This document shows, in pieces, positions 4,011 through 38,914 of a stretch of 64,000 bases of DNA (the first letter of the stretch is position 1; each line of letters begins with the position of its first letter). Below the pieces are notes generated by a model, which saw nothing but the letters and a program-made list of their open reading frames with translations, was not told where the DNA came from and did not search any database. The translations under genes and the position numbers were made by a program. Source of the stretch: an uncultured delta proteobacterium (GTDB taxonomy: Bacteria; Desulfobacterota; Syntrophia; Syntrophales; UBA2185); assembly GCA_963695875.1 (NCBI GenBank), contig CAVOID010000008.1, positions 192,001 to 256,000 on the forward strand, written 5' to 3'.

Positions 4011-5896
4011 ATCCAGCGGTCCAGCTTCGATTTCGCTTCATACTCTTCCCTGAGGGCGATTTGCGTGGCTTCCGCGATATCTTCCACCCTATTAACCAGA
4101 TCTTCAAACTTTATATCCACACCGAAGATGCCTACCATTTCATCATTATCATCGGCAAGAGGAGCTGAAACAGTTATGCAAAGCGCCCCCGTCATTTTTG
4201 ATATATAGAAATTGGTCACATGCATCTTGCCGCTCTGTAAAGGCTTAATAAACCACTCCCTGTCTGACTGGTCCGTCCCGACTCCGTAGTTTTCGTATTT
4301 TGCCCTGTCCGCAATATTGGTAATGTTCTTTGTAGTCTTCTTACCATTCATATCTACTACATAGGCAAACTGAATAGACGGGTTATCTTCAATACACTGC
4401 TGCATGACCGGTTCCTGAAGCTCCGGTTTCATGGTCTTCATTACCGGATGGTCGATCACCTGTTTGACGACATCCATAGCGGCCTGTGTCGCCATGAATT
4501 TGATCTTCTCCAGATCGGACATAAAGAGTTCCGGCAGATACTTCCGGACCATTCTCTCAAGTTCTTCATGGGAAATCCCTGTTGCCCTGCCGGATTCATA
4601 TTGATCCGTAACCCATTTATGGATTTTCGAAACGCCGGGATGTCTTTTATCGATTACGGTTTTGCCTTTTTCGCTCAAACGTGCATTGATCCAGTGAGCT
4701 ATACCGGCTTTCCCGGATTTGTCGGTGATCATGGTCACGATGGGTCTCTTCAGTATTTTGGTCGTATCGAAGATATTATAGATTTCTTCGTTCTTGATGA
4801 GACCGTCGGCATGGATACCGGCCTTCGTTATATTAAATTCTGCACCGACGAAGGGAAAATTAGTGGGAATTTTTACACCAATTTCCTTTTCAAAATATTG
4901 GGCAATATCGGTAATAACTGTAGTATCAATACCGTTGTTTGTCCCCCTCAATCCGATATATTCAATGATCAGGCCTTCTATGGGGGCATTGCCGGTACGC
5001 TCTCCCAGTCCGAGCAAAGTTCCATTTGCTGCGCCGCAACCGTACAGCCAGGCTGTTGTAGCATTGATCAGGGCCTTGTGGAAATCGTTGTGGCCATGCC
5101 ATTCCAGCAGATTACCGGGAACGCCGCCCTCATCGATAAATGCCCTGATCAGCTTTTCAACACTCCGCGGCAGTGATGCACCGGGATAGGTTACGCCATA
5201 ACCCATGGTATCGCAGAGCCTGATCTTAATGTCGATACCGCTTTCTTCACGGAGCTTCATGAGCTCAATGGCCAGGGGGATGCAAAATCCATATATCTCG
5301 GCCCTGGTTATATCTTCAAAGTGACACCTGGGTACAATACCTTCACCAAGAATATCTTTTACAATGCCGAGGTAGTCATCAAATGCTTTCTTTCTTGTCT
5401 CATTAAGTTTGAGAAAAATGTGGTAGTCAGAAACAGAAGTCAAAATGCCCGTTTCCTTCAATCCTGCCTCCTTTACCAGTTTTATGTCCTCTTTCTGGGC
5501 CCTGATCCAGCCTGTTATCTCGGGATATTTCAGGCCGAGTTCCAGACATTTCGCCACTGCTTCCCTGTCTTTCTTACTATAGAGGAAGAATTCGGATTGT
5601 CTGATCACACCGTTCTCACCGCCCAACCTGCTCATGAAGGTGTAGAGATCAACGATCTGCTTTACCGTATACGGTGGGCGTGCCTGCTGCCCATCTCTGA
5701 ATGTAGTATCCGTAATGAATATGTCTTCGGCAGGGTTTATCGGTATTATCTTATGGTCAAAGTCAATCCTGCTCACCTCATCATAGGGGAATACACCCTT
5801 CTGCAAATTAGGCTCCGCCACATCCTTGAGATCCAGTTGCCAGAATTTTGTATGTTCATGATCCAGAACTCTTTTTTCTTTATTCCATTTTGCCAT
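4007..5896 (-). CDS. DRE-TIM metallolyase (Re-citrate synthase-like) with C-terminal Cache-type domain
   Basis: DTTFRDGQQ, HGHND, GLGERTGN catalytic motifs; C-terminal DREWF...YISKMTGALCITVSAP...VGIFGVD is Cache/PDC-like. Confidence 0.75.
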   Translation of the reverse strand: MAKWNKEKRVLDHEHTKFWQLDLKDVAEPNLQKGVFPYDEVSRIDFDHKIIPINPAEDIFITDTTFRDGQQARPPYTVKQIVDLYTFMSRLGGENGVIRQSEFFLYSKKDREAVAKCLELGLKYPEITGWIRAQKEDIKLVKEAGLKETGILTSVSDYHIFLKLNETRKKAFDDYLGIVKDILGEGIVPRCHFEDITRAEIYGFCIPLAIELMKLREESGIDIKIRLCDTMGYGVTYPGASLPRSVEKLIRAFIDEGGVPGNLLEWHGHNDFHKALINATTAWLYGCGAANGTLLGLGERTGNAPIEGLIIEYIGLRGTNNGIDTTVITDIAQYFEKEIGVKIPTNFPFVGAEFNITKAGIHADGLIKNEEIYNIFDTTKILKRPIVTMITDKSGKAGIAHWINARLSEKGKTVIDKRHPGVSKIHKWVTDQYESGRATGISHEELERMVRKYLPELFMSDLEKIKFMATQAAMDVVKQVIDHPVMKTMKPELQEPVMQQCIEDNPSIQFAYVVDMNGKKTTKNITNIADRAKYENYGVGTDQSDREWFIKPLQSGKMHVTNFYISKMTGALCITVSAPLADDNDEMVGIFGVDIKFEDLVNRVEDIAEATQIALREEYEAKSKLDRWI

Positions 5897-15349: not shown

Positions 15350-15368
15350 AATTAATAAGAATTTGCAC

Positions 15369-15397
15369 TTGACATTGATGCGGTTTGGTTTTATAAG
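15369..15397 (+). promoter_or_regulatory. Sigma70 promoter of the leader peptide / ABC transporter operon
   Basis: TTGACA (15369-15374), 17-nt spacer, TATAAG (15392-15397). Confidence 0.75.
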
Positions 15398-15429
15398 CAC
15401 GCCACGGGAAGAATTAAAGTAAGAGGGAA

Positions 15430-15513
15430 ATGATGGACATGCTGTGCATAAGGGTACAAATATTTTTTACTTTTTTTGCATTTTTTAGTGGGGTCTGCCT
15501 GCCGCGCTCATGA
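15430..15513 (+). CDS. Phe-rich attenuator leader peptide MMDMLCIRVQIFFTFFAFFSGVCLPRS
   Basis: SD AGAGGGA directly upstream, alternative ATGs at 15430, 15433 and 15439; six TTT codons in eight positions (15463-15486); TGA at 15511-15513. Confidence 0.85.
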   Translation: MMDMLCIRVQIFFTFFAFFSGVCLPRS

Positions 15514-15569
15514 CCTGGAATTGTTAATAGAGCCGCGGGCAGACCGTTTAGCTGTCCGCGGCTTTTTTT
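15492..15569 (+). promoter_or_regulatory. Transcription attenuator: antiterminator and overlapping intrinsic terminator
   Basis: Antiterminator GGTCTGCCTGC (15492-15502) / GCGGGCAGACC (15535-15545); terminator AGCCGCGGGCAG (15531-15542) / CTGTCCGCGGCT (15552-15563) followed by T-run to 15569. Confidence 0.88.
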
Positions 15570-15573: not shown

Positions 15574-15610
15574 AAAAGGCTGTGGATTCTCCAGAGCCTT
15601 TTTTTATTTT
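15574..15610 (+). terminator. Second, weaker terminator-like hairpin in the leader
   Basis: AAAAGGCT-G-TGGA-ttc-TCCA-G-AGCCTTTTTTT-ATTTT. Confidence 0.55.
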
Positions 15611-15624: not shown

Positions 15625-16830
15625 ATGAAAAAAATATTCTATGGGATTCTTTGCACAGTACTTACGGGATTCATTCCTTTGTGTCTTATTTCGGGCGCAG
15701 ATGCGAAAACAATAAAAGTCGGTGCAGCAATAAACATGACTGGTCCTGCATCCACCTGGGGGCAATTTCATGCCAAGGGTCAGCAGGACTATTTCCGGTA
15801 CGTAAACGAGGTTAAAGGCGGCGTCGGAGGGAACAAGATCGAAATGATTCTTGTTGATACGGGGTACAAAGTCCCGGAGGCTGTCTCGGCTGTGAAAAGA
15901 TTTGCCATTCAGGATGAAGTTGATATGATTGCAACCTGGAGTGCCGGCGAAGGGCTGGCAGCAAAACCGATTATCCAGCAATATAAAATACCAGCCATCA
16001 ATTATTCTACGAGCTGGGAGATTCTTGAGTCACCGATAAGCTACATGTATTTGCCCTTTGGCAGCTATCGGTTGGACAGTTATGCAATTCTCGAATACAT
16101 ACGCACTATACACAAGGGAAAAGATGCACCGAAGGTAGGACTTTTGACATATAACAACGCATATGGCCGCTCTATACATCAACCTTGCAAGGAATACGCA
16201 AAAAAAATAAATATTAACATTGTTGCCATTGAAGAGTTTCCGCCGAAGACTGTGGATTTAACCACTGAATTGCTGCGTTTGCAGAAAAGCGGTGCGGAAT
16301 ATGTATTCATGCAAATACTTCCTGCCGCTATTATAACGGCATTCAAGAGTGCGGACCGCATCAATTATAACCCGGCATTTTTCGGTACCTGGACATCAAC
16401 AGACCCTGATTTTTTTAAGCTTGGCAAGGGCTTGATAAAAGATCGCCTGCGCATTCAGTTTTCAGGAGGTCTCCCTGTTGATAAGAGTCAGGGCATGAAA
16501 GTTATGACGGAACTGTGGAAACGCTACAAAACGGTCGATAAGTTCGATGCCTCATACTGGGAAGGCGTAGTGATAGGCATGATAATGGAAAGGGCATTCA
16601 TCCGGGCCAATCAAAAATATAAAGTAATCAACAGAGAAACAATCAACAAGGCTATGGAGTCGTTTAAGAATGAAGATTTTGGCGGTCTTGTTCCGAATAT
16701 TACATACGCAGCGGATGATCATGGGGGATCATTCAAAGCCAGGATTGTAAAAGTCAGAGAAGACGGTTCATATGCACCTATGACGAATTTCTTTAATCCC
16801 CTGAAGGAAAAGATCAAGTTATTGAAGTAA
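15625..16830 (+). CDS. ABC transporter substrate-binding protein (LivK/PBP1 family, aromatic or organic acid type)
   Basis: Signal peptide, IKVGAAINMTGPAS, VNEVKGGVGG..IE....DT.Y, NNAYGR. Confidence 0.88.
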   Translation: MKKIFYGILCTVLTGFIPLCLISGADAKTIKVGAAINMTGPASTWGQFHAKGQQDYFRYVNEVKGGVGGNKIEMILVDTGYKVPEAVSAVKRFAIQDEVDMIATWSAGEGLAAKPIIQQYKIPAINYSTSWEILESPISYMYLPFGSYRLDSYAILEYIRTIHKGKDAPKVGLLTYNNAYGRSIHQPCKEYAKKININIVAIEEFPPKTVDLTTELLRLQKSGAEYVFMQILPAAIITAFKSADRINYNPAFFGTWTSTDPDFFKLGKGLIKDRLRIQFSGGLPVDKSQGMKVMTELWKRYKTVDKFDASYWEGVVIGMIMERAFIRANQKYKVINRETINKAMESFKNEDFGGLVPNITYAADDHGGSFKARIVKVREDGSYAPMTNFFNPLKEKIKLLK

Positions 16831-16843
16831 CCGTATCGGATCT

Positions 16844-17671
16844 ATGAAAGCATATCGAGGAAAACCAAGCATATTCGATACCCGGAATGCGGAAGATAGG
16901 ATTGCAGAACTTAATGTCTGTAACCTTTCCTTGAGTTTTGGCGGTGTCAAGGCACTGAGCGATATCGATCTTTCTGTGAGTACCGGTGAACTGGTGGCAA
17001 TCATTGGGCCGAACGGTGCCGGAAAGACAAGTCTTTTGAACTGTATAACGGGCTTCTACAGACCGCAGAAGGGACGCATTCTTTTTAACGGCAAGGATAT
17101 AACTCATTTGCCACCTCACCATCTTGTCCGGATAGGCATAGGAAGGACTTTTCAAAACATCGAGCTGTTTCCCGGCATGACAGTTCTATCAAACATGCTT
17201 CTTGCTCGCCATAACCACTGCAAATATGGGATCGCTCCGGCTTGTCTTTTCTCATCATCAATACGAAAAGAGGAGATTCATCACCGTCGCGTCCTGGAAG
17301 AACTGATCGATTTTTTGGAAATCCAGGCCATCAGGAAAAAGACTGTGGGATCATTGCCGTACGGTTTGATGAAGAGGGTTGAACTGGGCCGTGCACTTGC
17401 CCTGGAGCCGGCTCTTCTGATTCTTGATGAACCATTCGCAGGAATGAACCTCGAAGAGAAGGAAGACATGGTACGTTTCTTGACAGAGATGAACCAAGCG
17501 TGGGGTCAGACGATGATTCTGGTAGAACATGACATGTCTATAGTGATGAGTATTTCTCAGCGAATTGTAGTATTGAACTTCGGTGAAAAACTGGCTGAGG
17601 GTAACCCGGATCAAATCAGAAACCATCCAGAGGTAATCAAAGCATATCTCGGTGATACAGTCAGTGTTTGA
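16844..17671 (+). CDS. ABC transporter ATP-binding protein (LivG-like)
   Basis: GPNGAGKT, RTFQN, LPYG..KRVELGRAL, LDEP, VIKAYLG. Confidence 0.92.
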   Translation: MKAYRGKPSIFDTRNAEDRIAELNVCNLSLSFGGVKALSDIDLSVSTGELVAIIGPNGAGKTSLLNCITGFYRPQKGRILFNGKDITHLPPHHLVRIGIGRTFQNIELFPGMTVLSNMLLARHNHCKYGIAPACLFSSSIRKEEIHHRRVLEELIDFLEIQAIRKKTVGSLPYGLMKRVELGRALALEPALLILDEPFAGMNLEEKEDMVRFLTEMNQAWGQTMILVEHDMSIVMSISQRIVVLNFGEKLAEGNPDQIRNHPEVIKAYLGDTVSV

Positions 17672-19629
17672 TGAATAAGGTATTTCCTGTGGCCAGTTAT
17701 AAAATTGCGGATGATGAAATACTTGCATCTTTATCTCAATATACGTTGCCCCAGATTTTGTCAAAGCAGGCGGAGAGACTCGGATCGGAAGAGACAGCTA
17801 TTCGAGAAAAGGCATATGGTATCTGGCAGACATATAGCTGGCAGGATTATTACCGATATGTGAAAAGAACCGGACTCGGCTTAATCGCTATCGGACTTAA
17901 AAAAGGGGACAATGTTGGCATCATTACAAACAACGTCCCGGAATGGCTCTTTAGTGAAATCGGCTGTCAGTCAGTCGGCGGGATATCCCTCAATCTTTTT
18001 ACGTCTTCTGTTGCGGAAGAATTGTGTCATGCCCTGAGTCGTATTAAAGCGGCCTATATCATCGCCCAGGACCAGGAGCAGGTAGACAAGATAATTGAAA
18101 GTCGTGAGAAACTGACTCATGTTTGCCGGGTCATCTATATAGATCCAACTGGGATGAGGACATATAAAGACAACCCCTGGCTACTCAGTTTTTCTGATCT
18201 TTTAGAGTTAGGCGAGAATCTTGACCGTGAAAAGCCTGATTTTTTTTCAGAGGAATTGCAGAAGGGCAGGAGGGACAATATTGCCATAATGATACAGACC
18301 TCGGGGACGATGGGAATTTCAAAACTTGCCATGCTGTCACATCGGAACATAACCGAAATGGCCAGGAAGTGGGTGGAAGCTCTTCAAATAAAACCCGGGG
18401 GAAACTGGATTTCAATATCTCCGCCGGCATGGATTGTAGATCAGATGTGGGGAGTAGGTGTGGCGCTCCTGGGCGGGATGGTCATGAATTTTCCTGAAAT
18501 GCCGGATACGATAGCCGAAGATTTTCGAGAAATCGGATCATCAATTATCATCACGTCATCGCGTTTCTGGGAGGATCTGGCCTCACGTATTATGGTTAAA
18601 ATGGACGATGCCGGTTTTATCAGGCGTAACCTCTTTGTCTATTCCATTAGAATAGGGAAAAAGGTTGTGGGGATTCAATCACAAAAAAAGGTTGTTCCCG
18701 GATATCTGAATTTACTTTATCGAATTTCCTCAGTAATGATCTACAGACCCTTGCTCGATAGAGTAGGATGTGCCTGTTTTAAAGGCGCCTTTACGGGAGG
18801 TCATCCTATTAGTCCTGATGTGATTCATTTTTTTCGCGCTATTGGATTAAATCTTAAGCAGTGTTACGGTCTGACCGAAGCAGGTGGAATATTCCAGGTT
18901 CAGCCCGATGGCGAAGTAAAGCTGGAGTCAGTAGGGAAGCCGCTGCCCAGGACCCTTGTGAAAATAGCAGATGATCAGGAAGTTCTGGTCCAGAGTGATT
19001 CAAACTTTGTAGGATACTATAACGATTTCAGAGCGACAGAAGATGCCTTTGACGGCGGATGGCTCAGAACCGGTGACGCAGGTTATATAGATAAAGACGG
19101 TCATCTCGTGATTATCGGGCGTAAGGGCGATATTATCAAAAACAAAGACGGAGAAGCATTTTCACCGGATTTCATAGAGACACGTCTCAAGTTCAGTCCA
19201 TATATCAAGGAAGCCGTAATGTTTGGTGAGGGGCGTCCATACATCACCGCACTTATTAATATTGACATGGGCAACGTAGGGAACTGGGCTGAAGAGCGCA
19301 TGATACCGTACACAACATACATAGACCTGTCTCAACAATCAGCTGTTGAGGACCTCGTACTTGATGAAGTCAGAAGGGTAAATATCAATCTGCCGGATAC
19401 CATGAAGGTCCGGAAATTCATATTGCTCTATAAACTCCTGGATGCCGATGATGAGGAGCTGACGAGAACGGGGAAGGTGCGCAGGAGATTTATTTATGGA
19501 CTCTATCTTAAACTCATAGAAGCGATGTATACAGGAAGGGATCAGGTTGATATCAAAACAAAAATCCAGTATCGAGACGGGCAGATAGGCGAAATTGAAA
19601 CTACAGCGAAAATAATTAAGGTTATTTAA
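17671..19629 (+). CDS. Long-chain acyl-CoA synthetase-like AMP-binding enzyme embedded in the ABC operon
   Basis: QTSGTMGISK, YGLTE, GWLRTGDAG, ELTRTGKVRR. Confidence 0.88.
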   Translation: MNKVFPVASYKIADDEILASLSQYTLPQILSKQAERLGSEETAIREKAYGIWQTYSWQDYYRYVKRTGLGLIAIGLKKGDNVGIITNNVPEWLFSEIGCQSVGGISLNLFTSSVAEELCHALSRIKAAYIIAQDQEQVDKIIESREKLTHVCRVIYIDPTGMRTYKDNPWLLSFSDLLELGENLDREKPDFFSEELQKGRRDNIAIMIQTSGTMGISKLAMLSHRNITEMARKWVEALQIKPGGNWISISPPAWIVDQMWGVGVALLGGMVMNFPEMPDTIAEDFREIGSSIIITSSRFWEDLASRIMVKMDDAGFIRRNLFVYSIRIGKKVVGIQSQKKVVPGYLNLLYRISSVMIYRPLLDRVGCACFKGAFTGGHPISPDVIHFFRAIGLNLKQCYGLTEAGGIFQVQPDGEVKLESVGKPLPRTLVKIADDQEVLVQSDSNFVGYYNDFRATEDAFDGGWLRTGDAGYIDKDGHLVIIGRKGDIIKNKDGEAFSPDFIETRLKFSPYIKEAVMFGEGRPYITALINIDMGNVGNWAEERMIPYTTYIDLSQQSAVEDLVLDEVRRVNINLPDTMKVRKFILLYKLLDADDEELTRTGKVRRRFIYGLYLKLIEAMYTGRDQVDIKTKIQYRDGQIGEIETTAKIIKVI

Positions 19630-19639
19630 GGTATAGCTT

Positions 19640-20518
19640 ATGAGCTTTTTTCTACAACTTTTCATAAATGGTATAAGTATTGGTTTTTTATATGGGCTGT
19701 CCGCCATGGGTTTTGTCATGATTTTTAAATCTTCCAGCGTCCTAAATTTTGCACATGGCGAGTTACTTGCCTTAGGGGCCTTCTTTTTTCTGGCCATGGT
19801 GACATGGGCCAAATTACCTATTGTGGTTGCCTTCCTGGTGACCCTCGTAGGTTGTTTTGTTTTGGGATTTCTGATTGAAAGATTATTTCTGCGTCCTCTT
19901 ATCGGTGAGCCTCTCATCTATGTGATCATGCTGACAGTGGGACTGGCTTCTATGTTCAGAGGTATAATGCTCTTTATATGGGGAGGAAATTTGCAGACCT
20001 ATCCTGATTTTCTGCCTGAATCTCTCAGTATTCGGTGGGACGTGATTAACGTACCGCCGGCCTATACCGCAGCTCTTATTATCGGGGTACTTTTTCTTAT
20101 ACTTTTTGGTCTTTTCTTCAAGTATTCTTCACAAGGCATATTTATGAGATCTGTAGCTGATAATCAAAAAGCGGCACTCTCATTGGGGGTTCATGTTCAA
20201 AAGGTCTTTGCACTATCGTGGGCTATTGCTGCACTTGTGGCCGGCATGAGCGGTATTGTAATGGGTGTTATAAATGGCATTAACGTGCATGATCTCAGCG
20301 CCATTGGACTCAAGGTATTCCCTGTGGTTATCCTTGGAGGTCTGGACAGCATTGGCGGTGCGATTCTTGGCGGTCTCATTATAGGTATTCTGGAAACATT
20401 CACCGGGGGCTATATTTCACCGTCGCTCCGTGATGTTGTACCATATATTGTACTTGTATTTATCCTCATGATAAAACCATATGGGCTTTTTGGCCTGGTG
20501 GAAATTGAAAGGGTATAA
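19640..20518 (+). CDS. ABC transporter permease (LivH-like)
   Basis: LNFAHGE, MRSVADN..AA.SLG, VVILGGLDSIGGA. Confidence 0.92.
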   Translation: MSFFLQLFINGISIGFLYGLSAMGFVMIFKSSSVLNFAHGELLALGAFFFLAMVTWAKLPIVVAFLVTLVGCFVLGFLIERLFLRPLIGEPLIYVIMLTVGLASMFRGIMLFIWGGNLQTYPDFLPESLSIRWDVINVPPAYTAALIIGVLFLILFGLFFKYSSQGIFMRSVADNQKAALSLGVHVQKVFALSWAIAALVAGMSGIVMGVINGINVHDLSAIGLKVFPVVILGGLDSIGGAILGGLIIGILETFTGGYISPSLRDVVPYIVLVFILMIKPYGLFGLVEIERV

Positions 20519-20525
20519 GTCAGTA

Positions 20526-21596
20526 ATGAAAAGATTTCATTTCCATCCCTGCGGTAATTACAGGGAAAAATACGAACAAGAAATTACTGTCTTCGAGACC
20601 GACTTCGGCAGACTTTGGCTGTGGATCGGCATTTTTCTCCTTTTCGTCATAGTTCCATTCATAAGCAGTCCTTATTTCCTACATGTACTGAATACAATCG
20701 GGATAGCATCAATTGCGGCGATCGGGTTAAATATCCTTATCGGATACACGGGACAGATATCTCTTGGTCACGGGGCCTTCATCGGCGTCGGGGCTTATGC
20801 CGCTGCAATACTTGCAACGTCAGCAAACATTCCTTTTCTTCTTAACCTGCCGATGGCCGGACTGGTATCTGCCCTGGTAGGTATGATTTTCGGCATACCA
20901 TCCGGACGTCTCAAAGGCCTGTACCTCACAATTGCAACGCTTGCTGGCCAGATTATCATTGAATATGTTTTAATCCACTGGGAAAGTCTAACGAAAGGCA
21001 CTATGGGAATTACACTTCCCAGCCCCTCCATTTTTGGATTCGAATTAGCCAGCGATAAAGACTTCTTTTTTATGATATTCGTAAGCCTCATAGTAATGAT
21101 CTGGATAGCGGTAAACCTTATGAGAACAAAATATGGCAGAGCCTTTATTGCGATTCGAGATAATGACCGGGCTGCGGAAGGTATGGGTATTCCAATTTTC
21201 AGGTACAAGCTCCTTTCTTTTGGAATCAGCTCGTTCTATGCAGGCTTTGCCGGTGCAATATGGGCTTATTACATGGTCAGCATCACATCAGAACCATTCA
21301 ACCTGGGTCTCTCCGTCGAATACATCGCAATGGTGATCATAGGCGGCCTGGGAAGTATTACCGGTTCCATTTATGGCGCCATCTTTATAACCTTTTTGAA
21401 TGAAATTCTGAGATGGCTGACGGATATCGTGATGAACGTGGGAATCTTCACGGAAGCTGGTTTGAATGTGGCACCATTGAGAGAATTTTTCTTTGGACTG
21501 GCGATAGTTCTCTTCATTCTCTGTGAGCCGCGCGGACTTGCGGAGATATGGCGTATTATACGTTCCAACTTCAGGCTGTGGCCGTTTGCTTATTAA
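20526..21596 (+). CDS. ABC transporter permease (LivM-like)
   Basis: GYTGQISLGHGAF, RLKGLYLTIATL, GRAFIAIRDND.AAE.MGI; start moved to ATG 20526. Confidence 0.92.
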   Translation: MKRFHFHPCGNYREKYEQEITVFETDFGRLWLWIGIFLLFVIVPFISSPYFLHVLNTIGIASIAAIGLNILIGYTGQISLGHGAFIGVGAYAAAILATSANIPFLLNLPMAGLVSALVGMIFGIPSGRLKGLYLTIATLAGQIIIEYVLIHWESLTKGTMGITLPSPSIFGFELASDKDFFFMIFVSLIVMIWIAVNLMRTKYGRAFIAIRDNDRAAEGMGIPIFRYKLLSFGISSFYAGFAGAIWAYYMVSITSEPFNLGLSVEYIAMVIIGGLGSITGSIYGAIFITFLNEILRWLTDIVMNVGIFTEAGLNVAPLREFFFGLAIVLFILCEPRGLAEIWRIIRSNFRLWPFAY

Positions 21597-21607
21597 GAGT
21601 TATCCGC

Positions 21608-22411
21608 ATGACTGAAAGTACTATTCTCGAGATCAACAATATATCTGTCGTTTATTCAGATGTTATTCAGGTCCTTAAGGGAGTATCCCTTATCGTTGAA
21701 CGGGACTCCATTGTGTCCCTTCTGGGCAGCAACGGTTCCGGAAAATCGACAACGCTGAAGGCCATATCTGGCCTGCTTAAACCTGAAAACGGCAAGGTGA
21801 CGGAAGGGACCATTATGTATGATGCAAAGCCCATTCAGAATCAGTCTCCCGAGGTCATTACGCGCAAGGGAATAATTCAGGTTCTGGAAGGCCGTCAGCC
21901 TTTCAAATATTTGACTGTTGAAGAAAACCTTATTGTCGGAACGGCCATCAGGTGGCGGAAGCCTTATAAGAAAGATCTGGAAATGGTTTATCATTATTTC
22001 CCCGCCATATTGAAAAGAAGGAAGATGCTGGCCGGATATTGCAGCGGTGGAGAACTTCAAATGATTGTCATGGGAAGGGCTTTGATGGCCCACCCGGCTC
22101 TTTTGCTTTTGGATGAGCCTTCTCTCGGGCTTGCTCCCATGGTTGTGAAGGAAATATTTCAGATCATAAAAAAGATAAATGAGGAACAGGGAACAACAAT
22201 TATGCTCGTCGAACAGAATGCCAATATGGCCCTGCAGATTTCTGATTATGGTTATGTAATGGAAAATGGAAAGATCGTTATGGAAGGTGGTGCAAAGACC
22301 CTTGTTGAGAATCCCGATATAAAAGAATTCTACTTGGGTATGGGGGCAACGGGCGTGTTAAAATCATATAAAGATGTCAAATCATATCGCCGTCGAAAGA
22401 GATGGCTGTAA
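21608..22411 (+). CDS. ABC transporter ATP-binding protein (LivF-like)
   Basis: GSNGSGKST, SGGELQM, LDEPSLGLAP, VEQNA, C-terminal KSYRRRKRWL; start moved to ATG 21608. Confidence 0.92.
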   Translation: MTESTILEINNISVVYSDVIQVLKGVSLIVERDSIVSLLGSNGSGKSTTLKAISGLLKPENGKVTEGTIMYDAKPIQNQSPEVITRKGIIQVLEGRQPFKYLTVEENLIVGTAIRWRKPYKKDLEMVYHYFPAILKRRKMLAGYCSGGELQMIVMGRALMAHPALLLLDEPSLGLAPMVVKEIFQIIKKINEEQGTTIMLVEQNANMALQISDYGYVMENGKIVMEGGAKTLVENPDIKEFYLGMGATGVLKSYKDVKSYRRRKRWL

Positions 22412-22503
22412 ATAGATGGCGTGGTATCCGAAGAAAGATCTTTCATTCAGCATTGACGAGAACAATTTTTGGATCTGCAAAAACTTTATGAGGGATATAG
22501 CCT

Positions 22504-23760
22504 ATGGCAGATTGTTATGATTATAAAGAATGTGTGCCTGTGGAAGAAAGAGAACGCAGGCGCTCACTACTAATAATGGAAATGCTCAAGTCGGGTTATC
22601 AAAAATCAAGTCGCATAAGAAAGATGTTTGCCCAGCTGAAGATGGATCATTCTGAAATTAAAACCCTGAGTGATTTCGAAAAACTTCCTGTTATCTCCAG
22701 GGGAAAGCTAATTGAGCTCGAAATGTCGGAACCTCCATACGGAGGGCTGAACAATTCAGACTCAGATGTTGATAGAATTTTTATTTCTCCTGGTCCTGTA
22801 TATGAACCACACCTCTCGGAGAATGACAACCTATGGGCAAGGGCATATTATGCTGCCGGCATCGGAAAGGGAGATGTGGTTCTCAATGCTTTTTCCTACC
22901 ACATGGTTGCTGCCGGCTTGACCTTCCATGGAGGATTAAGACACATTGGTGCTACAGTCATCCCTTCTGGAACTTCAAGTTCACAACTTCAGGTACAGTT
23001 AATTCGCGACCTATCTGTAACAGCTTATGCAGGCACTCCCAGTTTTTTAATGAGCATTATAAATAAAGCAGAAGAAATGGGTTATGATTTTAAGAAAGAT
23101 TTCAGGATGAGGCGAGCCTGCTTTGCCGCGGAACCTCTTGCGCCATCGTTGAGAGAAAAATTCGAGCGGGAATATGCTATTGACACATATCAGATGTATG
23201 GCGCAACGGAAGTGGGGGATGTATCTTTTGAATGCAGAGAAAAGAAAGGATGGCATATCTGTGAAGAAGTCCTTCTGGAGATTATTGATCCGGCCACAGG
23301 GAAAAGTGTGCCGCCTGGAACGATGGGTGAAGTTGTCGTTACCCGGTTCAATAACATTTTCTTCCTTTTCCGGTTCGGGACCGGTGATCTTTCAAGAGTA
23401 ATAGAGTCACCATGCACCTGCGGAAGAACATCGTTTCGCTTGGATGGCATTGCCGGACGAGTGGGCGATGCGGTGAAAGTCAGGGGACTTTTCATCGCAC
23501 CGAGTCAGCTTAATAAAATCAAGGAAAAATTCTATAGTGTTAAATTCCAGCTCCTTGTCAGCCGAACTTCTCATGAGGATATTTTAACCGTGAAACTGGA
23601 GCTGAAAGAGGCAGGAATGAATACCGTATCCCTGGAAGAGAACTTCAGGGATCATTTCAAAGATGTATGTACGGTGAGAATTGACCGTCTGGAATTTTTG
23701 AATCCCGGCACATTAAGAGATGATGATAAAATGATCGTCGATCAGCGCGAGTGGAAATAG
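22504..23760 (+). CDS. Phenylacetate-CoA ligase family protein (PaaK-like)
   Basis: SPGPVYEP, FSYH...AG, YGATE, RFGTGDLS, CTCGRT, GRVGDAVKVRGLFI.P. Confidence 0.8.
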   Translation: MADCYDYKECVPVEERERRRSLLIMEMLKSGYQKSSRIRKMFAQLKMDHSEIKTLSDFEKLPVISRGKLIELEMSEPPYGGLNNSDSDVDRIFISPGPVYEPHLSENDNLWARAYYAAGIGKGDVVLNAFSYHMVAAGLTFHGGLRHIGATVIPSGTSSSQLQVQLIRDLSVTAYAGTPSFLMSIINKAEEMGYDFKKDFRMRRACFAAEPLAPSLREKFEREYAIDTYQMYGATEVGDVSFECREKKGWHICEEVLLEIIDPATGKSVPPGTMGEVVVTRFNNIFFLFRFGTGDLSRVIESPCTCGRTSFRLDGIAGRVGDAVKVRGLFIAPSQLNKIKEKFYSVKFQLLVSRTSHEDILTVKLELKEAGMNTVSLEENFRDHFKDVCTVRIDRLEFLNPGTLRDDDKMIVDQREWK

Positions 23761-26291: not shown

Positions 26292-27399
26292 ATGATGAAA
26301 CTGAAGATAGCCGTTCTAACAGGGGGAGGAGATTGTCCCGGCTTGAATGGTGCGATCAAATGGGTTACAAAAACCGCTCTTGATCCAAAACTTGCTGAGA
26401 AACGTTCAGTTTCTTTTGAGGTTATAGGTGTTACCGAAGGCTGGAGGGGCTTGGTCGAGGTTGATCCGGACGACCCCAAAAGCCGTGACCGATACCTTAG
26501 ACGTCTGGATGAAGAGATCGTACGAACATGGGACCGCTATGGTGGAACACACTTAGGGACATCGCGGACAAACCCTTTTAATCCGAAGAATGATCGCTCT
26601 GAAAAATTAATCGATAACATCAAAGAACTTGGGATTGACGTTATCGCTGTACTCGGAGGAGAAGATACCCTTGGTGTGGCGTATAAATTACATAAGTTGG
26701 GCATTAAGACCGTAGGCATCCCCAAGACTATCGACAATGACCTCACGGGCACAGAATATTCCCTCGGTTATGATACGGCTGTTAATGTGATCACGGAGGA
26801 AATTGACCGGTTGAGAACTACCGCCGGTTCTCACAGCCGTAATTTCGTGGTTGAAACAATGGGACGTCATGCGGGATGGCTTGCTCTTCATGGAGGTGAA
26901 TGCAGCGGTGCTTATATAATCCTGATACCTGAATATCCTTTTGATATAGACGTGGTGTGCGAACTTCTTCGGGAACGAAAGGGACGGGAAATAAACTATT
27001 CAATTATTGTTGTTTCCGAAGGGGCCAAACCTGTGGGGCAGCAGGAACTCACTCAGAGATAATAAAGTTGATGAATTCGGACATCCCACGCTCGGGGGTA
27101 TAGCGAGCTCTGTTGCAAATGAAATTGAAAAGAGAACTGGCTTCGAGTCACGCTCTCTCATACTGAGCCATTTACAGCGGGGAGGGACGCCTTCTGCACA
27201 TGATCGCCTGATGGCCAGGTGGTTTGGGATAGCCGCTGTGGATATGGTTGTCAATGAAGATTTCGGCCGTATGGTGAGCCTTACGAGGGGTGAAATTACG
27301 AGTGTCCCGCTTAAGGAGATAATTAATAAACTAAAGCTTGTCGACGTAGAAAAATATTATGATACCGAACGCTACAATGGCCGGAGATCAATATTGTAA
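26292..27399 (+). CDS. 6-phosphofructokinase with PPi-dependent signature; one apparent +1 frameshift near 27055
   Basis: GGGDCPGLN, GGEDT, PKTIDND, ETMGRHAGW in ORF 26292-27062; continues as DEFGH..LGG...HLQRGG.P in ORF ending 27399. Confidence 0.88.
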
Positions 27400-31392: not shown

Positions 31393-32922
31393 ATGAATTT
31401 GAACAATTCCATACAAACTCTATCTGCCGAGGAACTTCCGAAGGTACCGCTTGTGTTGGATGGGTTGTCTACCCGGTTCATTCGTGAGCATAAGATCATC
31501 CCTCTGGAGATGAAGAATAACCTGCTCAAAGTGCTCATGGCCGATCCCGCAAACGGTGAGGTTATCGATTCCCTCCGGGTAGCCCTGTCTGTCGATGTAC
31601 AGGTTTATGGCGGAGACGGGAAAATGATTGACGATTTTATTTCCCGCTACTACAGCCAGGAGACCCAGGATATAGGGAAGATGATCGAAAACATCGATGA
31701 GAACGGGGTCGAGTTCGTCGGTGAAGAAGGGGAGGATGTCGGACATCTCAAGGATCTGGCTTCGGAAGCACCGATCATCAAGCTTGTGAACCTGTTGATT
31801 ACGCAGGCTGTGGAGAGCCGGGCCAGTGACATCCATATCGAGCCCTTTGAGGATGAATTGAAAGTGCGCTACCGTATCGACGGCGTTCTTCACAACATAG
31901 AATCGGTGCCGAAAAAACTACAGGCGGCCCTTGTTTCCCGGGTGAAGATCATGGCAAAACTGAACATCGCCGAGCGCCGCCTTCCCCAGGATGGCCGCAT
32001 CCGTCTCAAGGTCGGTGAAAAAGAGATCGACCTTCGCGTATCGAGTATCCCTATTATCTATGGCGAAAGCGTTGTCATGAGGATTCTCGACAAGGAAGGG
32101 ATCGTGATCGATCTCGATCAACTGGGATTTTCCGAAGAGACTCTCACCCCGTTTCGCAACCTCATCCGGAAACCCCACGGCATTATTCTTGTTACGGGTC
32201 CCACGGGAAGCGGGAAGACCACAACCCTTTACGGCGCGCTCGACAAGATCAATTCACCGGACAGAAAAATCATCACCGTCGAAGACCCGGTGGAGTATCA
32301 ACTCAAAGGCGTCAACCAGATACAGGTAAAACCCCAGATCGGCCTAAATTTTGCTAACACCCTGCGCCATATCGTCCGGCAGGACCCTGATGTCATCATG
32401 ATCGGCGAGATCCGGGACCTGGAAACGGCAGAGATTGCCGTCCAGTCATCTCTCACGGGCCACCTCGTATTTTCAACGCTTCACACGAACGACGCCCCCA
32501 GTGCCATTACGAGGCTCCTTGATATCGGTGTGGAGAGCTTCCTTCTTTCTTCCACAATCAGGGGCATTCTGGCGCAGCGGCTCGTCCGGATCATCTGCCC
32601 GCACTGCAAGGAAAAGGATCCCTCCGTGATGAGCCTGGAAGAACTGGCACCCTTCGGCATAGGCGCAGATGTCGATCTCTATCGGGGGAAAGGTTGCGAA
32701 AAATGTACTTTCACAGGCTACTTCGGCAGGACCGGTGTTTTCGAGCTGCTGGTCGTTGATGATGACATGCGTCGGCTGATTCTCCGGAGCGCGGATGCAA
32801 ACGAGCTCAGAAATATGGCAAGAAAGCTCGGCATGAAGACACTTCTTGAGGACGGCGCAGTCAAGGTCAGGAAGGGTCTCACCACCGTTAACGAAGTATT
32901 CAGGGTGACGCAGGAGGTATAA
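31393..32922 (+). CDS. gspE: Type II secretion ATPase GspE
   Basis: ASDIHIEP, AERRLPQDGRI, GPTGSGKTTT, RQDPDVIMIGEIRD, tetra-Cys motif. Confidence 0.95.
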   Translation: MNLNNSIQTLSAEELPKVPLVLDGLSTRFIREHKIIPLEMKNNLLKVLMADPANGEVIDSLRVALSVDVQVYGGDGKMIDDFISRYYSQETQDIGKMIENIDENGVEFVGEEGEDVGHLKDLASEAPIIKLVNLLITQAVESRASDIHIEPFEDELKVRYRIDGVLHNIESVPKKLQAALVSRVKIMAKLNIAERRLPQDGRIRLKVGEKEIDLRVSSIPIIYGESVVMRILDKEGIVIDLDQLGFSEETLTPFRNLIRKPHGIILVTGPTGSGKTTTLYGALDKINSPDRKIITVEDPVEYQLKGVNQIQVKPQIGLNFANTLRHIVRQDPDVIMIGEIRDLETAEIAVQSSLTGHLVFSTLHTNDAPSAITRLLDIGVESFLLSSTIRGILAQRLVRIICPHCKEKDPSVMSLEELAPFGIGADVDLYRGKGCEKCTFTGYFGRTGVFELLVVDDDMRRLILRSADANELRNMARKLGMKTLLEDGAVKVRKGLTTVNEVFRVTQEV

Positions 32923-34119
32923 ATGCCAGTCTTTGCCTACCGTTCAACCACCATGGAAGGGCAGATTGCAGAAGGGGTCATTGAGGCCCCCGACGAAAAG
33001 GCCGCCGTCGAGAGGCTGAAGAATACGGGAGTAATCCCGTTGGAGGTCAAGGCGCCACGCGAGGGCATTCTGAAGGCGAGACTCCGGCTGAGAGGAAGGA
33101 GAGTAGACCTGGTAACGTTCACGGCAGAGCTCTCCGCACTCCTGGGAGCGGGGCTTCCCCTGGATCGGAGCCTCAACATCCTGGCGGAAATATCCGAACA
33201 TAAAGAAATGAAAGATATTGTGCAATCCCTGCTCAGATCCATCCGGGAGGGGGGGTCTTTTTCCGAGGCGCTCCGGAAGCATCCCGATGTATTTTCTCTG
33301 CTTTATGTCAATATGGTCAGGGCCGGCGAGACCGGCGGCGTCCTCGATGTGATCCTGGAGCGCTTGAATGAATTCCTTGAATCGGCAAAGGAATTGCGGG
33401 ACCATGTGTTTTCTGCCATGATCTATCCCACGATACTTTTCTTTACCGGCGGGATTTCCATTATACTCCTCCTCACATTCGTCCTGCCCAGGTTCTCCGT
33501 AGTTTTTGCAGAGCTCGGAAGCTCTTTGCCCCTTTCGACGCAGATCCTCCTGGCGGTCAGTGAAACACTGCGGTCCTATGGCTGGATATTTTTCCTGGCC
33601 ATCGCCGGGGCATGGCTGATGTTCAGGAGTTACATCCGTTCCGACCGGGGGAGATACTGGTGGGATGCCATGAAGCTTAAGCTCATGGGAGATGTCATCA
33701 TAAAACTGGAAACGGCGCGTTTCTGCAGGACTTTGGGGACGCTCCTGGCCAGCGGTGTTCCTCTCCTACAGGCCTTGAGCAATTCCGGAGAAATCATCAG
33801 TAACCGGGCAGTCGCCGCGGCCGTCGAATGCGTATCCAAAGGAGCCAAAGAAGGGAAGGGCATTTCTTTTCCTCTGTCACAAACAAATGTCTTTCCCCAG
33901 TTGGCCCTCTCCATGATTAAGGTAGGCGAAGAGACAGGGCAGCTCGACCAGATGCTGATCCGGATTGCCGTGACTTATGAGAAAAGCCTCAGGCAGGCCA
34001 TCAAGCGCTTTATGGCCTTCCTGGAGCCGGTCCTGATACTCGTCATGGGGTTGGTCATAGGTTTTATCGTCGTTTCAGTGCTGCTGGCCATCTTCAGTAT
34101 CTCCGAACTGCCGTTTTGA
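32923..34119 (+). CDS. gspF: Type II secretion inner-membrane platform protein GspF
   Basis: GLPL, AGETGG.L, AMIYP, VGEETGQL, LEP. Confidence 0.93.
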   Translation: MPVFAYRSTTMEGQIAEGVIEAPDEKAAVERLKNTGVIPLEVKAPREGILKARLRLRGRRVDLVTFTAELSALLGAGLPLDRSLNILAEISEHKEMKDIVQSLLRSIREGGSFSEALRKHPDVFSLLYVNMVRAGETGGVLDVILERLNEFLESAKELRDHVFSAMIYPTILFFTGGISIILLLTFVLPRFSVVFAELGSSLPLSTQILLAVSETLRSYGWIFFLAIAGAWLMFRSYIRSDRGRYWWDAMKLKLMGDVIIKLETARFCRTLGTLLASGVPLLQALSNSGEIISNRAVAAAVECVSKGAKEGKGISFPLSQTNVFPQLALSMIKVGEETGQLDQMLIRIAVTYEKSLRQAIKRFMAFLEPVLILVMGLVIGFIVVSVLLAIFSISELPF

Positions 34120-34136
34120 GAAAAATAGAAAGCACA

Positions 34137-34160
34137 GGATTCAAGGGGTCGAGGGGTCAA
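34137..34160 (+). repeat. 8-bp tandem repeat (3 units) upstream of gspH
   Basis: GGATTCAA GGGGTCGA GGGGTCAA. Confidence 0.6.
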
Positions 34161-34176
34161 GTTATGTGGAATTGTT

Positions 34177-34623
34177 ATGGTTAAGAGCGACCACAGAAAG
34201 GATGGTTTCACGCTCCTGGAGCTGGTTATAGTCCTTTTTCTAATGACACTGATGCTGGGAATGTCTACGGTCTTCTTTGCCGGCCTCTTTCCCGCGGCAA
34301 AGCTTAACGCTACGGGACGGGAAGTGGCAGCCGCTATCCGTTACGCCCGCTCTCTGGCTCGCATGAGCATGGAAAAACAGACGGTCGTGATCGACATGGA
34401 TAACCAGGCCTATGGCATCGCAGGGCTGGGGTTAAAATATTTTCCACCGGAAACCCGTGTAATGGTTACCGACCCTATTGCGGGCGAGATGAACCGTGGC
34501 AAATATCCCATCGTTTTCCACCCCGCCGGAGGGATGGAAGGTGGAACCATAACAATCTTCGGCAAGAAAAAAGTGGTTAGGATTGAAACGGATCCCATCT
34601 CGGGAGCAGTGGTAATAAAATAA
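34177..34623 (+). CDS. gspH: Minor pseudopilin (GspH-like)
   Basis: G/FTLLELVIV prepilin motif; position in gsp operon. Confidence 0.8.
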   Translation: MVKSDHRKDGFTLLELVIVLFLMTLMLGMSTVFFAGLFPAAKLNATGREVAAAIRYARSLARMSMEKQTVVIDMDNQAYGIAGLGLKYFPPETRVMVTDPIAGEMNRGKYPIVFHPAGGMEGGTITIFGKKKVVRIETDPISGAVVIK

Positions 34624-34684
34624 ATGAAAAATGCAAAAGTAAAAATACAAAATGTGAATTGCAAAATTCGGATTGCAAAAGGAA
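34622..34684 (+). repeat. 7-bp tandem repeat (9 degenerate units) encoding the GspI leader
   Basis: AAATGAA AAATGCA AAAGTAA AAATACA AAATGTG AATTGCA AAATTCG GATTGCA AAAGGAA. Confidence 0.7.
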
Positions 34685-35091
34685 TAAACGGTGATGTCGG
34701 CTTTACACTCCTGGAGGTCCTGGTGGCTCTGTCCATCATCGCCATTGCCATCGTGCTCATCCTGCAGCTATATTCGTCAAATCTGCGGGCGGTTTCCATC
34801 TCCGGCGATACATCTGCTGCCGCCGTACGTGGGGATTCGCGGATGAGAGAAATCCTGGCCGAAGCGTCCCTTGCGGAAACATCATGGAGAGAAATTACGG
34901 AGGACGGCTACGGCATTGAAGTTTCCATCGCGGAAGTGCTGAAGGAAAGAACGGATAATCTTTCGATCAAAATGATGGAAGTCAACCTTACTGTCCGCTG
35001 GCGAGAGGGTATGAAGGAAAGAAGCCTTTATCTGAAAGCACAAAAATTGGTCGACAAGATAGCGCCCGCGGAACAAAGTTCCCCAGTGTAA
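34624..35091 (+). CDS. gspI: Minor pseudopilin (GspI-like)
   Basis: G/FTLLEVLVAL prepilin motif. Confidence 0.8.
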   Translation: MKNAKVKIQNVNCKIRIAKGINGDVGFTLLEVLVALSIIAIAIVLILQLYSSNLRAVSISGDTSAAAVRGDSRMREILAEASLAETSWREITEDGYGIEVSIAEVLKERTDNLSIKMMEVNLTVRWREGMKERSLYLKAQKLVDKIAPAEQSSPV

Positions 35092-35103
35092 ACTTAGAGA
35101 ATA

Positions 35104-35806
35104 ATGCATAACCCATCAAACATACATATAGCAGTGAAAAGGGAACAACGGCCATTCCCCGTCTCGGAAAGAGGATTTACGCTCCTGGAGCTTCTCATAG
35201 CAATTACACTGCTTGCACTTATTGTGGGAATCACGATGGGGGCTATGCGGATCGGCTCCCGATCGGTCGCTGCCGCAGAGAAAAAGATGGAGTCCCAGGA
35301 GAGATTCAGAACGGTCCTTTCCATCATCGATGCCCAGATTCAATCACAGGTTCCTCTCACTTATGAGGAAGAGGGAAACAAGCTGTACTATTTTCGGGGT
35401 GAGGGGAAGACCCTCAGTTTTTGCACAAACTACTCCATCTGGGGCGGCCAGAAGGGTTATGTCATCGTCGATTACAAAGTGGATAGAGATAATACCGGGC
35501 AGGAAGTTCTTTATGCCGGCGAACGTATACCGGGGCTTCAAGGCCGCCGGGAGACACGGTTGATGATGCGCATCCGGTATCTCTTTCGAATACTATCACA
35601 AGGACCTCACCGAGGAACAGGCAAAGTGGATGGAGACGTTGTCATCGGGGACGGCTATTCCCGAAAAGATACGGATACACATTATGCAGGGAGCAAAGAA
35701 ATTTTCCCTCGTATTTCCCGTCCGTGTCGGTGGGGAAATAGTGCAGGTAGCAGGGGGGGCGCCTGTCACAAATATTGGGGGAGGCACTCAACCCGCGCGG
35801 CACTGA
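35104..35806 (+). CDS. gspJ: Minor pseudopilin (GspJ-like); apparent +1 frameshift near 35565
   Basis: G/FTLLELLIAI; the +1 frame gives a typical C-terminus SGISFEYY...W...IPEKIRIHI ending at TGA 35806. Confidence 0.75.
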
Positions 35807-35834
35807 GATAGGCATCTGGCCTGTGTGCAACTAA

Positions 35835-38375: not shown

Positions 38376-38913
38376 GATTCTGGTGATCGCCATTCCTCTC
38401 ATGGTCATCCTCCTCGGTACGGTCATATACCAGTATGGTTATCTGAAGGTCCAGTCGGATTTGACTGCCATGGAAGATACAGAATCCGTCAAGTTGAGAA
38501 CCCTGGAAAAATATATCAACCTGATCACCGACAAACCGCGCATCGAAGAGAAACTGGCGGCAACGAGGGAAACCAGAAAGGCGGAGAGCTCGAAAATGAT
38601 CGAGGGACAGACACCTTCTGTCGCTGCCGCTACTCTCCAGAATTCGGTCAAGGGCATGATCACGGCCAGAGGAGGAAGCATATCCAGCGATCGAGTCGAA
38701 AAACCTGAGGATGCGGGAAAGTTCAAAATGATCACTGTAACCGTTGACGCGGTGCTGCCCGATACGAGAGCCCTAGGCGACACTCTGTACGCCATAGAGA
38801 CGCAGACCCCCTATCTCGTTGTACGGGAGCTGGATACGAGGATCAGGAATTTCAAGGAGCCGCGGGATCTAATGGTCAAACTGAAGGTATCGGGACTGAC
38901 AGGAGGGAAATAA
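38359..38913 (+). CDS. gspM: GspM-like assembly protein
   Basis: N-terminal TM helix, coiled coil, AAATLQ...IETQTPYL.V..L; operon position. Confidence 0.7.
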   Translation: MKRKSKILVIAIPLMVILLGTVIYQYGYLKVQSDLTAMEDTESVKLRTLEKYINLITDKPRIEEKLAATRETRKAESSKMIEGQTPSVAAATLQNSVKGMITARGGSISSDRVEKPEDAGKFKMITVTVDAVLPDTRALGDTLYAIETQTPYLVVRELDTRIRNFKEPRDLMVKLKVSGLTGGK

Positions 38914-38914
38914 G

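Follow-up and report, generated by a model that had tools for sequence, protein, structure and literature searches.

A seven-gene operon lies at positions 15625–23760 of the window, as we call the 64,000-nucleotide stretch of DNA analysed here, which is part of contig C8 in the genome of an uncultured Syntrophales bacterium. The operon encodes a complete ATP-binding cassette (ABC) importer of the HAAT family together with two coenzyme A (CoA) ligases, and is preceded by a conserved leader with the predicted anatomy of a phenylalanine (Phe) attenuator. On the sequence evidence, we propose that the operon is a Phe-starvation-induced, high-affinity importer of an aromatic carboxylic acid, most likely phenylacetate, which is coupled to CoA activation and feeds an anabolic salvage of Phe; we judge the case for this proposal to be about evenly balanced. 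An earlier note on this DNA had also postulated a phenylacetate salvage system. The salvage interpretation is the best reading, partly supported and evenly poised between standing and falling: the conserved Phe switch, the shared attenuator scaffold, the embedded ligases and the presence of IorAB in 40 of 41 relatives speak for it, and the weak PaaK match, the mixed ligands of the binding protein's relatives and iorAB genes tied to the operon only by their chromosomal neighbourhood do not.

The host genome comprises 2.86 Mb in 16 contigs and is 82.6% complete, and its relatives are Syntrophales (Syntrophaceae/Smithellaceae). The comparison covered 41 related genomes, plus related loci taken from public contigs (44 loci). 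Thirty-five of the 44 loci are complete for the six core genes of the operon, and the remaining nine end at contig edges. An orthologous binding protein was identified in 35 of the 41 related genomes.

A Phe-codon leader with two tandem terminators precedes the operon

All elements upstream of the first gene lie on the forward strand. A promoter-like site (15369–15397), consisting of TTGACA (15369–15374), a 17-nt spacer and TATAAG (15392–15397), was read by eye; it is unlisted by the promoter scanner, which demands a T at the last position of the −10 element. The leader open reading frame (ORF) of 27 codons (15430–15513) has an ATG start, a Shine–Dalgarno-like GAGGG 4 nt upstream and a TGA stop at 15511–15513. 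Its product, MMDMLCIRVQIFFTFFAFFSGVCLPRS, contains the stretch FFTFFAFF (15463–15486), in which six of eight codons specify Phe. Region 1 (15492–15510; GGTCTGCC and the following bases) is located within the last seven codons of the leader ORF and pairs with region 2 (15532–15545) to form a predicted antiterminator. Region 2 is overlapped by the 5′ arm of terminator 1 (15532–15569; arms 15532–15542 and 15552–15562, T7 run 15563–15569), which was also found by the terminator scanner. Terminator 2 occupies 15578–15605 (arms 15578–15586 and 15590–15598, T7 run 15599–15605), and the ribosome-binding site of the binding-protein gene is the last element after it.

The pairings were counted on a 40-sequence alignment of upstream regions. 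A core of eight bases in region 1 is invariant in all 40 sequences, and region 1 pairs with region 2 in 97.5% of cells, compared with 23–51% when slid; this helix shows no compensatory change since region 1 never varies. For terminator 1, 94.5% of cells are paired and three pairs show compensatory changes (20 cells), with a covariation score that was reached by none of 500 shuffles. For terminator 2, 82.5% of cells are paired and four pairs are changed on both sides. The 3′ arm of terminator 1 pairs with the 5′ arm of terminator 2 (3:4, the relay) in 84.2%, compared with 18–69% when slid. An upstream “region 0” (CAGGCAGA) pairs with region 1 in 81.9%, with no covariation.

These elements form what appears to be a classical ribosome-stalling attenuator, with a relay that would disarm both terminators. 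When Phe-tRNA is scarce, the ribosome would stall at the FFxFFxFF codons and leave region 1 free to pair with region 2; the 3′ arm of terminator 1, released in this way, would bind the 5′ arm of terminator 2. Both terminators would be kept from forming, and transcription would proceed into the operon. With ample Phe, the ribosome would reach the stop codon and cover region 1, and both terminators would form. From this leader anatomy we infer that Phe shortage switches the operon on, and such induction would be the natural reading of a conserved attenuator with Phe codons in its leader.

The leader is widely kept among the relatives. A simple pattern found a Phe-rich, ATG-started leader in 27 of 30 relatives' loci, with misses in L013, L020 and L031. 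With public-contig loci included, the orthologous operons have 65 distinct upstream regions, of which 46 carry a Phe-rich leader by a mechanical criterion (at least four Phe in eight residues, then a stop codon 50–200 nt ahead of the gene, followed by a T-run); L046 is a doubtful positive in this count, and L070, whose leader mixes F and Y, escapes it. Across relatives, the Phe pairs persist although the adjoining residues vary. Tyr is mixed with Phe in some relatives, and the leaders are overwhelmingly Phe-coded. The Phe attenuator that the earlier note had placed ahead of the operon is thus real, with a recurring Phe-rich leader and a covarying terminator. In Rfam, the leader matches no family: the eight matches at E up to 10 were at chance level, and none was to a leader family, Phe_leader included. 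The leader therefore seems to resemble pheL in its working, without sequence membership of the Rfam Phe_leader family.

For related loci that lack the leader, an Rfam scan of seven revealed no T-box. A conserved T-rich motif 330–400 nt upstream is common to the leaderless loci. Two of the seven loci hold an nhaA-I RNA (Rfam RF03057, 52 bits; L043 9287–9348 and L047 9284–9346) some 650 nt upstream of the operon.

The attenuator scaffold is shared with operons of amino-acid supply

A scan of the host genome for a Phe-rich leader plus terminator gave two candidates, and only the leader of this operon has a gene behind it. With looser scans, a terminator scaffold of the form GCC(G/A)YGG...CCR(Y)GGC followed by a T-run was found at six places in the genome, five of which follow codon-biased leaders. 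On the same scaffold, a WWW leader lies 2 kb before the window on the reverse strand (C8:190014–190105, approximately L084 14015–14106), in front of trpE-G-D-C-F-B-A, whose trpE is split into three ORFs in the host assembly. Likewise, a Leu-rich leader precedes leuA-leuCD, and an Ile/Val/Leu-rich leader precedes an ORF that resembles ilvB, as seen from the N-terminus only and with no family search. The aro-pheA operon of the host genome runs off the contig end. In the complete relative G007 (L091 9120–9320), a mixed F/Y/W leader ending in ...KGFYYWNYNFLLVCLLLRRN, with the GGTCTGCC scaffold and two terminators, precedes the DAHP synthase-aroB-pheA-aroDE operon (one genome).

Because the scaffold is common to the trp, leuA, probable ilvB and the relative's aro-pheA leaders, the importer/ligase operon is, to judge by its leader, the Phe-specific member of an attenuator family that otherwise controls amino-acid supply. 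This membership is the strongest argument for an anabolic role of the operon.

Another Leu-rich leader (LYLLALLL), which with the leader of the present operon completes the five and is followed by a GGCCATGG...CCATGGCC-T7 terminator, was found on the reverse strand at C10:161253–164640 (L092 5253–8641), before the genes of a POR/VOR-family 2-oxoacid:ferredoxin oxidoreductase with four subunits (gamma, delta, alpha and beta). A Leu-rich leader and terminator stand before POR/VOR-type genes in 25 of 30 relatives' loci, the misses being L109, L111 (25 nt of upstream sequence only), L114, L118 and L122. The carboxylation of isovalerate to leucine is the branched-chain counterpart of the phenylacetate route. 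The Leu-attenuated oxidoreductase is possibly an independent parallel that fits this logic, and its Leu switch could govern the reductive carboxylation of isovaleryl-CoA. The conversion of isovalerate to leucine is attributed to Allison 1962 and 1965, as cited in PMC7356843.

The operon encodes an importer with an embedded CoA ligase

The gene content named in the earlier note (binding protein, ATPase, acyl-CoA synthetase, two permeases, ATPase and PaaK-like ligase) was confirmed by Pfam and NCBIfam. The seven ORFs share the forward strand, with intergenic gaps of −49 to +92 nt in the ORF list. The first encodes a substrate-binding protein of the type I periplasmic class (HAAT family; 15625–16830; Pfam Peripla_BP_6, E 7e-47) with a signal peptide-like N-terminus. 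A LivG-like ABC ATPase follows (16844–17671; 262 bits against a cut-off of 362 on the NCBIfam LivG model), and its stop is overlapped by 4 nt by the start of a FadD-like AMP-forming acyl-CoA ligase of 653 aa (17668–19629). Behind this ligase lie two BPD_transp_2 permeases, LivH-like (19640–20518; NCBIfam 112 bits against 379) and LivM-like (20481–21596; 136 bits against 366), a LivF-like ABC ATPase (21548–22411; 221 bits against 441) and a divergent PaaK-family adenylate-forming ligase of 418 aa (22504–23760; Pfam AMP-binding and a weak AMP-binding_C_2). With a type I binding protein, two permeases and two ATPases, all five assigned by Pfam, the subunit set of a HAAT-family importer is complete. 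None of the seven proteins reaches a curated equivalog cut-off in NCBIfam; all five transporter proteins fall below theirs, and branched-chain amino acid specificity is unsupported.

The six core genes stand in the same order in 35 of the 44 related loci, and this order is broken in none. All 35 complete loci have the FadD-like ligase gene between livG and livH, and since the core gene order is so kept, this gene is a fixed part of the transporter operon. The two CoA ligases inside the importer operon argue for a carboxylic acid as the probable substrate.

The FadD-like ligase matches AMP-binding (E 8e-55) and AMP-binding_C_3 (E 3e-11) in Pfam. Its best NCBIfam model is FadD11 (246 bits against a cut-off of 950), with no equivalog match; among solved structures, no relative is better than E 3e-23, and the ESM Atlas gives generic “long-chain acyl-CoA synthetase” clusters only. 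For the second ligase, the label PaaK-like of the earlier note holds at the family level: it scores 187.1 bits on TIGR02155 (cut-off 646.3) and 210.7 bits on NF041878 (cut-off 700), and its best solved relative is 4r1l, the PaaK of Bacteroides thetaiotaomicron (E 3e-49). Because the score lies far below the PaaK cut-offs and better paralogues are encoded elsewhere, “PaaK-like” is on this evidence a family label and no substrate call, and better candidates for a true phenylacetate-CoA ligase appear to lie outside the operon.

One of the PaaK paralogues is followed by an ACT-pair protein, one stands alone and one, of 532 bits, is the last gene of a second Liv-type ABC operon (C3:325866–332886; L089, L087) with binding protein, permeases and ATPases. 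No Phe leader and no FadD-like ligase were found in this second operon. A transposase fragment lies between its binding-protein and permease genes.

Among the 35 complete loci, the PaaK-like gene is directly downstream in 16 (in pieces in L060) and 0.8–2.9 kb downstream, behind inserted genes, in five. One locus has only a 42%-identical PaaK-like copy, located upstream, and the gene was not found in the other 13, one of which ends right after livF. The insertions between livF and the PaaK-like gene were considered as pathway genes and rejected, as two loci inspected hold HNH or RES-domain genes or ORFs without a Pfam match.

The binding protein is related to type I proteins of mixed ligands

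Sequence search, profile search, hhalign comparison with LivJ, and AlphaFold modelling followed by Foldseek all place the binding protein among type I proteins of mixed ligands. It reaches 49 bits on the NCBIfam LivJ-type model, whose cut-off is 477. The AlphaFold model (pLDDT 83) is closest to 3lkb, a Thermus protein with bound valine (TM 0.83/0.87, 23% identity), and next to 4n03, a fatty-acid binding protein (TM 0.81/0.83). Rhodopseudomonas palustris proteins with p-coumarate, 3-phenylpyruvate (4dqd) or 4-hydroxybenzoate follow closely as structural matches.

The binding protein and Escherichia coli LivJ are about 22% identical over 229 columns (hhalign). At the LivJ contact positions, taken from a docking passage of PMC6983066, Tyr18 aligns with an invariant Trp45, Ser79 with Ala107, Thr102 with Thr129, Tyr150 with Tyr180 and Tyr202 with Leu232; T129 and Y180 are also invariant. 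Because the valine-binding 3lkb departs from LivJ at contact positions as well, this comparison does not tell binders of amino acids apart from those of acids. An acid as ligand finds general support in Giuliani et al. 2011 (PMC3223731), where COG0683 proteins of R. palustris are described as binding mostly other amino acids and/or aromatic, fatty or dicarboxylic acids. The same paper places the RPA1789 (CouP) and RPA3723/3724 systems next to CoA ligases, and relates the binding profile of RPA3723/3724 to the substrate preference of the ligase PimA.

IorAB and the de novo Phe pathway are both encoded in the host genome

The genes iorA (53272–55066, +), for the alpha subunit of an indolepyruvate/arylpyruvate:ferredoxin oxidoreductase, and iorB (55071–55653, +) begin 29.5 kb after the operon end, which agrees with the roughly 30 kb and the absence of an adjacent ligase stated in the earlier note. 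Their neighbours encode a YbgC-type thioesterase, a TPR protein and DnaJ. Each gene lies in two frames. The IorA pieces match TIGR03336 at positions 1–360 (412.6 bits) and 344–595 (284.3 bits), against a cut-off of 650.9 bits. In iorB, the N-terminal part occupies one frame from 55071 on, and a second frame takes over at about 55254; the IorB models match the 3′ ORF from about model position 55 and stay below cut-off on this split ORF. The extra base near 54248 in iorA is absent from the contigs of four of four covering public runs, and that near 55254 in iorB from those of two of two (about 99% alike); IorA appears intact in such near-identical public contigs. Because these bases are absent from the contigs of other runs and several other genes are split alike, both frameshifts are most likely assembly indels.

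IorA-family matches were found in 40 of the 41 relatives, above cut-off in 32. In 12 relatives, IorA and the binding-protein gene share a contig at a distance of 11–28 kb, in a conserved neighbourhood of housekeeping genes and not in an operon. The host genome also has a CM-PDT-ACT pheA, aroD, aroE, aroA and aroC, and the shikimate/pheA route, for which the earlier note had suggested a search, is complete-looking. The same note had looked to co-occurrence with iorAB; the genes are indeed common, and prephenate dehydratase (PDT/pheA) is likewise present in 40 of 41 relatives, so that co-occurrence discriminates nothing and was dropped as a discriminator.

A proposed route from an imported aryl acid to Phe

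In the proposed mechanism, the acid would be caught by the periplasmic binding protein and would enter the cell through the LivHMGF-like translocator. The always-present FadD-like ligase would make the CoA thioester, and the PaaK-like ligase, where present, may do likewise. IorAB would then reductively carboxylate the arylacetyl-CoA to phenylpyruvate, from which an aminotransferase would form Phe. Running beside the shikimate/pheA route, such a salvage would spare carbon and ATP for an energy-limited syntroph. We infer phenylacetate as the substrate, the formation of phenylacetyl-CoA by either ligase, the reversed direction of IorAB and the opening of the switch on Phe shortage. According to PMC7356843 and PMC4162585, which cite the original work, phenylacetate is an established source of Phe in rumen anaerobes (Allison 1965) and in Methanococcus maripaludis (Porat 2004).

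A wider proposal, which we advance tentatively and regard as rather doubtful, is that the Syntrophales possess an attenuator set for the “reverse oxidoreductase” salvage of fermentation acids. In such a set, the Phe switch would control the ABC importer, whose embedded FadD-like ligase would thioesterify phenylacetate on entry (vectorial CoA activation) and feed IorAB, and the Leu switch would control the VOR-type oxidoreductase that carries isovalerate to leucine.

Weighing the salvage reading against its alternatives

Several observations count against the salvage of phenylacetate. The operon's PaaK-like ligase is divergent (187–211 bits against PaaK cut-offs of 646–700), three paralogues elsewhere in the genome fit PaaK better (624, 532 and 478 bits), and the gene is the one not found in 13 of 35 complete loci, whereas the FadD-like ligase is missing in none. 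The FadD-like ligase, for its part, is without a characterised close relative in NCBIfam, among solved structures or in the ESM Atlas. The nearest solved relatives of the binding protein hold valine (3lkb) or a fatty acid (4n03). As for iorAB, no Phe leader precedes iorA in the host genome, in none of the 44 related loci is iorAB closer than 10 kb, and conserved macro-synteny alone ties these genes to the operon. Because PDT/pheA is present in 40 of 41 relatives, there is apparently no auxotrophy that demands salvage, and beside the complete-looking shikimate/pheA route of the genome any salvage would be a supplement to de novo Phe synthesis. On the side of regulation, no Phe leader was found within 330 nt in 19 of the 65 upstream regions, all of which belong to binding proteins at most 74% identical to that of the window; these leaderless loci may carry another control element. 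Furthermore, “region 0” is not kept in the host's genus, so untranslated leader RNA may read through.

It is fairly unlikely, in our view, that the system imports L-phenylalanine itself or aromatic amino acids on Phe starvation, in the manner of E. coli LivJ/LivK-LivHMGF, with the ligases accessory or unrelated. It is common for an amino-acid importer to be induced by scarcity of its amino acid. The transporter parts here are homologous to LivJ/H/M/G/F, and the annotation of the E. coli system names branched-chain amino acids and phenylalanine as what it transports. The bound valine of 3lkb and the alignment of LivJ Thr102 and Tyr150 with the invariant T129 and Y180 point the same way. An amino acid needs no CoA activation, however, and the gene of a 653-aa CoA ligase overlaps the livG stop in an operon where it is present in 35 of 35 complete loci. 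The low LivJ-type score (49 against 477 bits) also speaks against a Phe importer, as do Ala107 and Leu232 in place of LivJ Ser79 and Tyr202, residues that the valine-binding 3lkb is also without. We consider it unlikely that the substrate, in place of phenylacetate, is a different aromatic acid or precursor of Phe (for instance phenylpyruvate, phenyllactate, phenylpropionate or 4-hydroxyphenylacetate). Family members do bind 3-phenylpyruvate (4dqd), p-coumarate and hydroxybenzoates, Tyr is mixed into some leaders, and two different ligases could mean two substrates; yet phenylpyruvate or phenyllactate would yield Phe without any CoA ligase, the leaders overwhelmingly code for Phe, and no route is known to us that leads to Phe from phenylpropionyl-CoA or benzoyl-CoA.

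Benzoate and cyclohexanecarboxylate are typical substrates of Syntrophales, and the operon might instead serve a catabolic or lipid-related uptake of fatty, alicyclic or aromatic acids, with a Phe-rich leader that does not report Phe supply. The automatic naming of the FadD-like ligase as a long-chain acyl-CoA synthetase, the fatty-acid binding protein 4n03 as the second-nearest structure, and the operon copies whose binding proteins are at most 74% identical and which lack the leader are compatible with this idea. We hold it to be improbable, given that the leader preserves its Phe pairs amid otherwise variable residues and shares its scaffold with the attenuators of trpE, leuA and the aro-pheA operon; a small remainder of probability is assigned to none of these readings. 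Coupling a catabolic substrate to charged Phe-tRNA would make no sense, and ABC uptake would suit scavenging more than bulk catabolism.

Comparison with known systems and implications

As in E. coli pheL-pheA and pheM-pheST, a short ORF with Phe codons is followed here by mutually exclusive antiterminator and terminator hairpins, and stalling is read as a shortage of Phe-tRNA. The leader of the present operon differs from these in matching no Rfam family, in its two tandem terminators joined by a relay, in a scaffold common to the Syntrophales trpE, leuA, probable ilvB and aro-pheA leaders, and in controlling an importer/ligase operon, not pheA or pheST. The transporter belongs to the same family as E. 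coli LIV-I/LS (LivJ, LivK, LivHMGF) and has the same subunit set, and the E. coli system also carries Phe; the E. coli operon, however, is without a ligase, and the two binding proteins are distant. Similarly, the PaaK-like ligase belongs to the same adenylate-forming subfamily as PaaK of B. thetaiotaomicron (4r1l) and Burkholderia PaaK1/2 (2y27/2y4o), but differs in its score (187 bits against 646 on TIGR02155), in its weak C-terminal domain match and in having three host paralogues that are much closer to PaaK.

The R. palustris systems CouP/RPA1789 (with p-coumarate-CoA ligase) and RPA3723/3724 (with PimA) likewise pair a COG0683 binding protein and a Liv-type translocator with a CoA ligase, according to PMC3223731. 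Those systems are catabolic and substrate-induced, whereas the ligase gene here lies between ATPase and permease genes and control would be exerted by Phe shortage. The proposed sequence of arylacetate, arylacetyl-CoA, arylpyruvate (by IorAB) and amino acid follows the aryl-acid route of rumen anaerobes and M. maripaludis, and IorAB is present here. As far as PMC7356843 and PMC4162585 cite them, the reports of that route (Allison 1965; Porat 2004) mention neither a transporter nor control by amino-acid sensing; in the present case, by contrast, the pathway is deduced from sequence and stands beside a de novo route.

Taken singly, attenuation by a leader peptide, HAAT importers next to CoA ligases, and the IOR route have all been known before. 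A literature search, made without subscription journals or supplements, found no published description of a Phe-attenuated importer/ligase operon. If the salvage reading is true, the operon would supply the unknown transporter and regulation of the phenylacetate-to-phenylalanine route, and genes that usually bear the label of branched-chain amino acid transporter, long-chain fatty-acid ligase and catabolic phenylacetate ligase would serve anabolic, Phe-regulated scavenging. The scoring of amino-acid self-sufficiency and cross-feeding in syntroph genomes from peat, sediments and digesters would change accordingly, and one binding protein, two ligases and one RNA switch would offer a directly testable handle. 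If the wider attenuator set exists, it would put names to the steps of uptake, activation and control that are missing from a pathway on record since the 1960s, and would make aryl and branched-chain acid cross-feeding a regulated part of the amino-acid economy in methanogenic communities. Should the salvage reading be wrong, it would still have to be explained why a conserved Phe attenuator precedes an importer operon that has a ligase gene within it.

Genomic context and other features of the window

A PilS-like kinase with a sigma-54 response regulator is encoded upstream of the operon, and recJ lies convergent downstream. The idea of a sigma-54 promoter linked to this neighbouring PilS/NtrC-type pair was dropped, as none was seen in 15350–15430. 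Public DNA runs containing the stretch of the window originate from freshwater sediment, peat and wetland metagenomes, and a look for RNA runs with this stretch turned up none.

One-base indels are frequent in the assembly: pfk, iorA, iorB, dnaJ and dnaE are each split into two ORFs, and the window spans of the split genes are 26292–27399, 53272–55653, 56007–56952 and 57978–61287. The split genes of the host assembly also include trpE, aroA and aroC.

A GC-richer block (about 50%, compared with 40–44% elsewhere) extends over 31393–42468 of the window. It holds a type II secretion/pilus-like set comprising GspE, GspF, pseudopilins, GspK, a PilN-like protein, GspM, a secretin and GspG. On the reverse strand, 4007–5896 encodes a 629-aa protein in which an HMGL-like (aldolase/carboxylase-type) domain is fused to a Cache/PDC sensor domain, an unusual combination.

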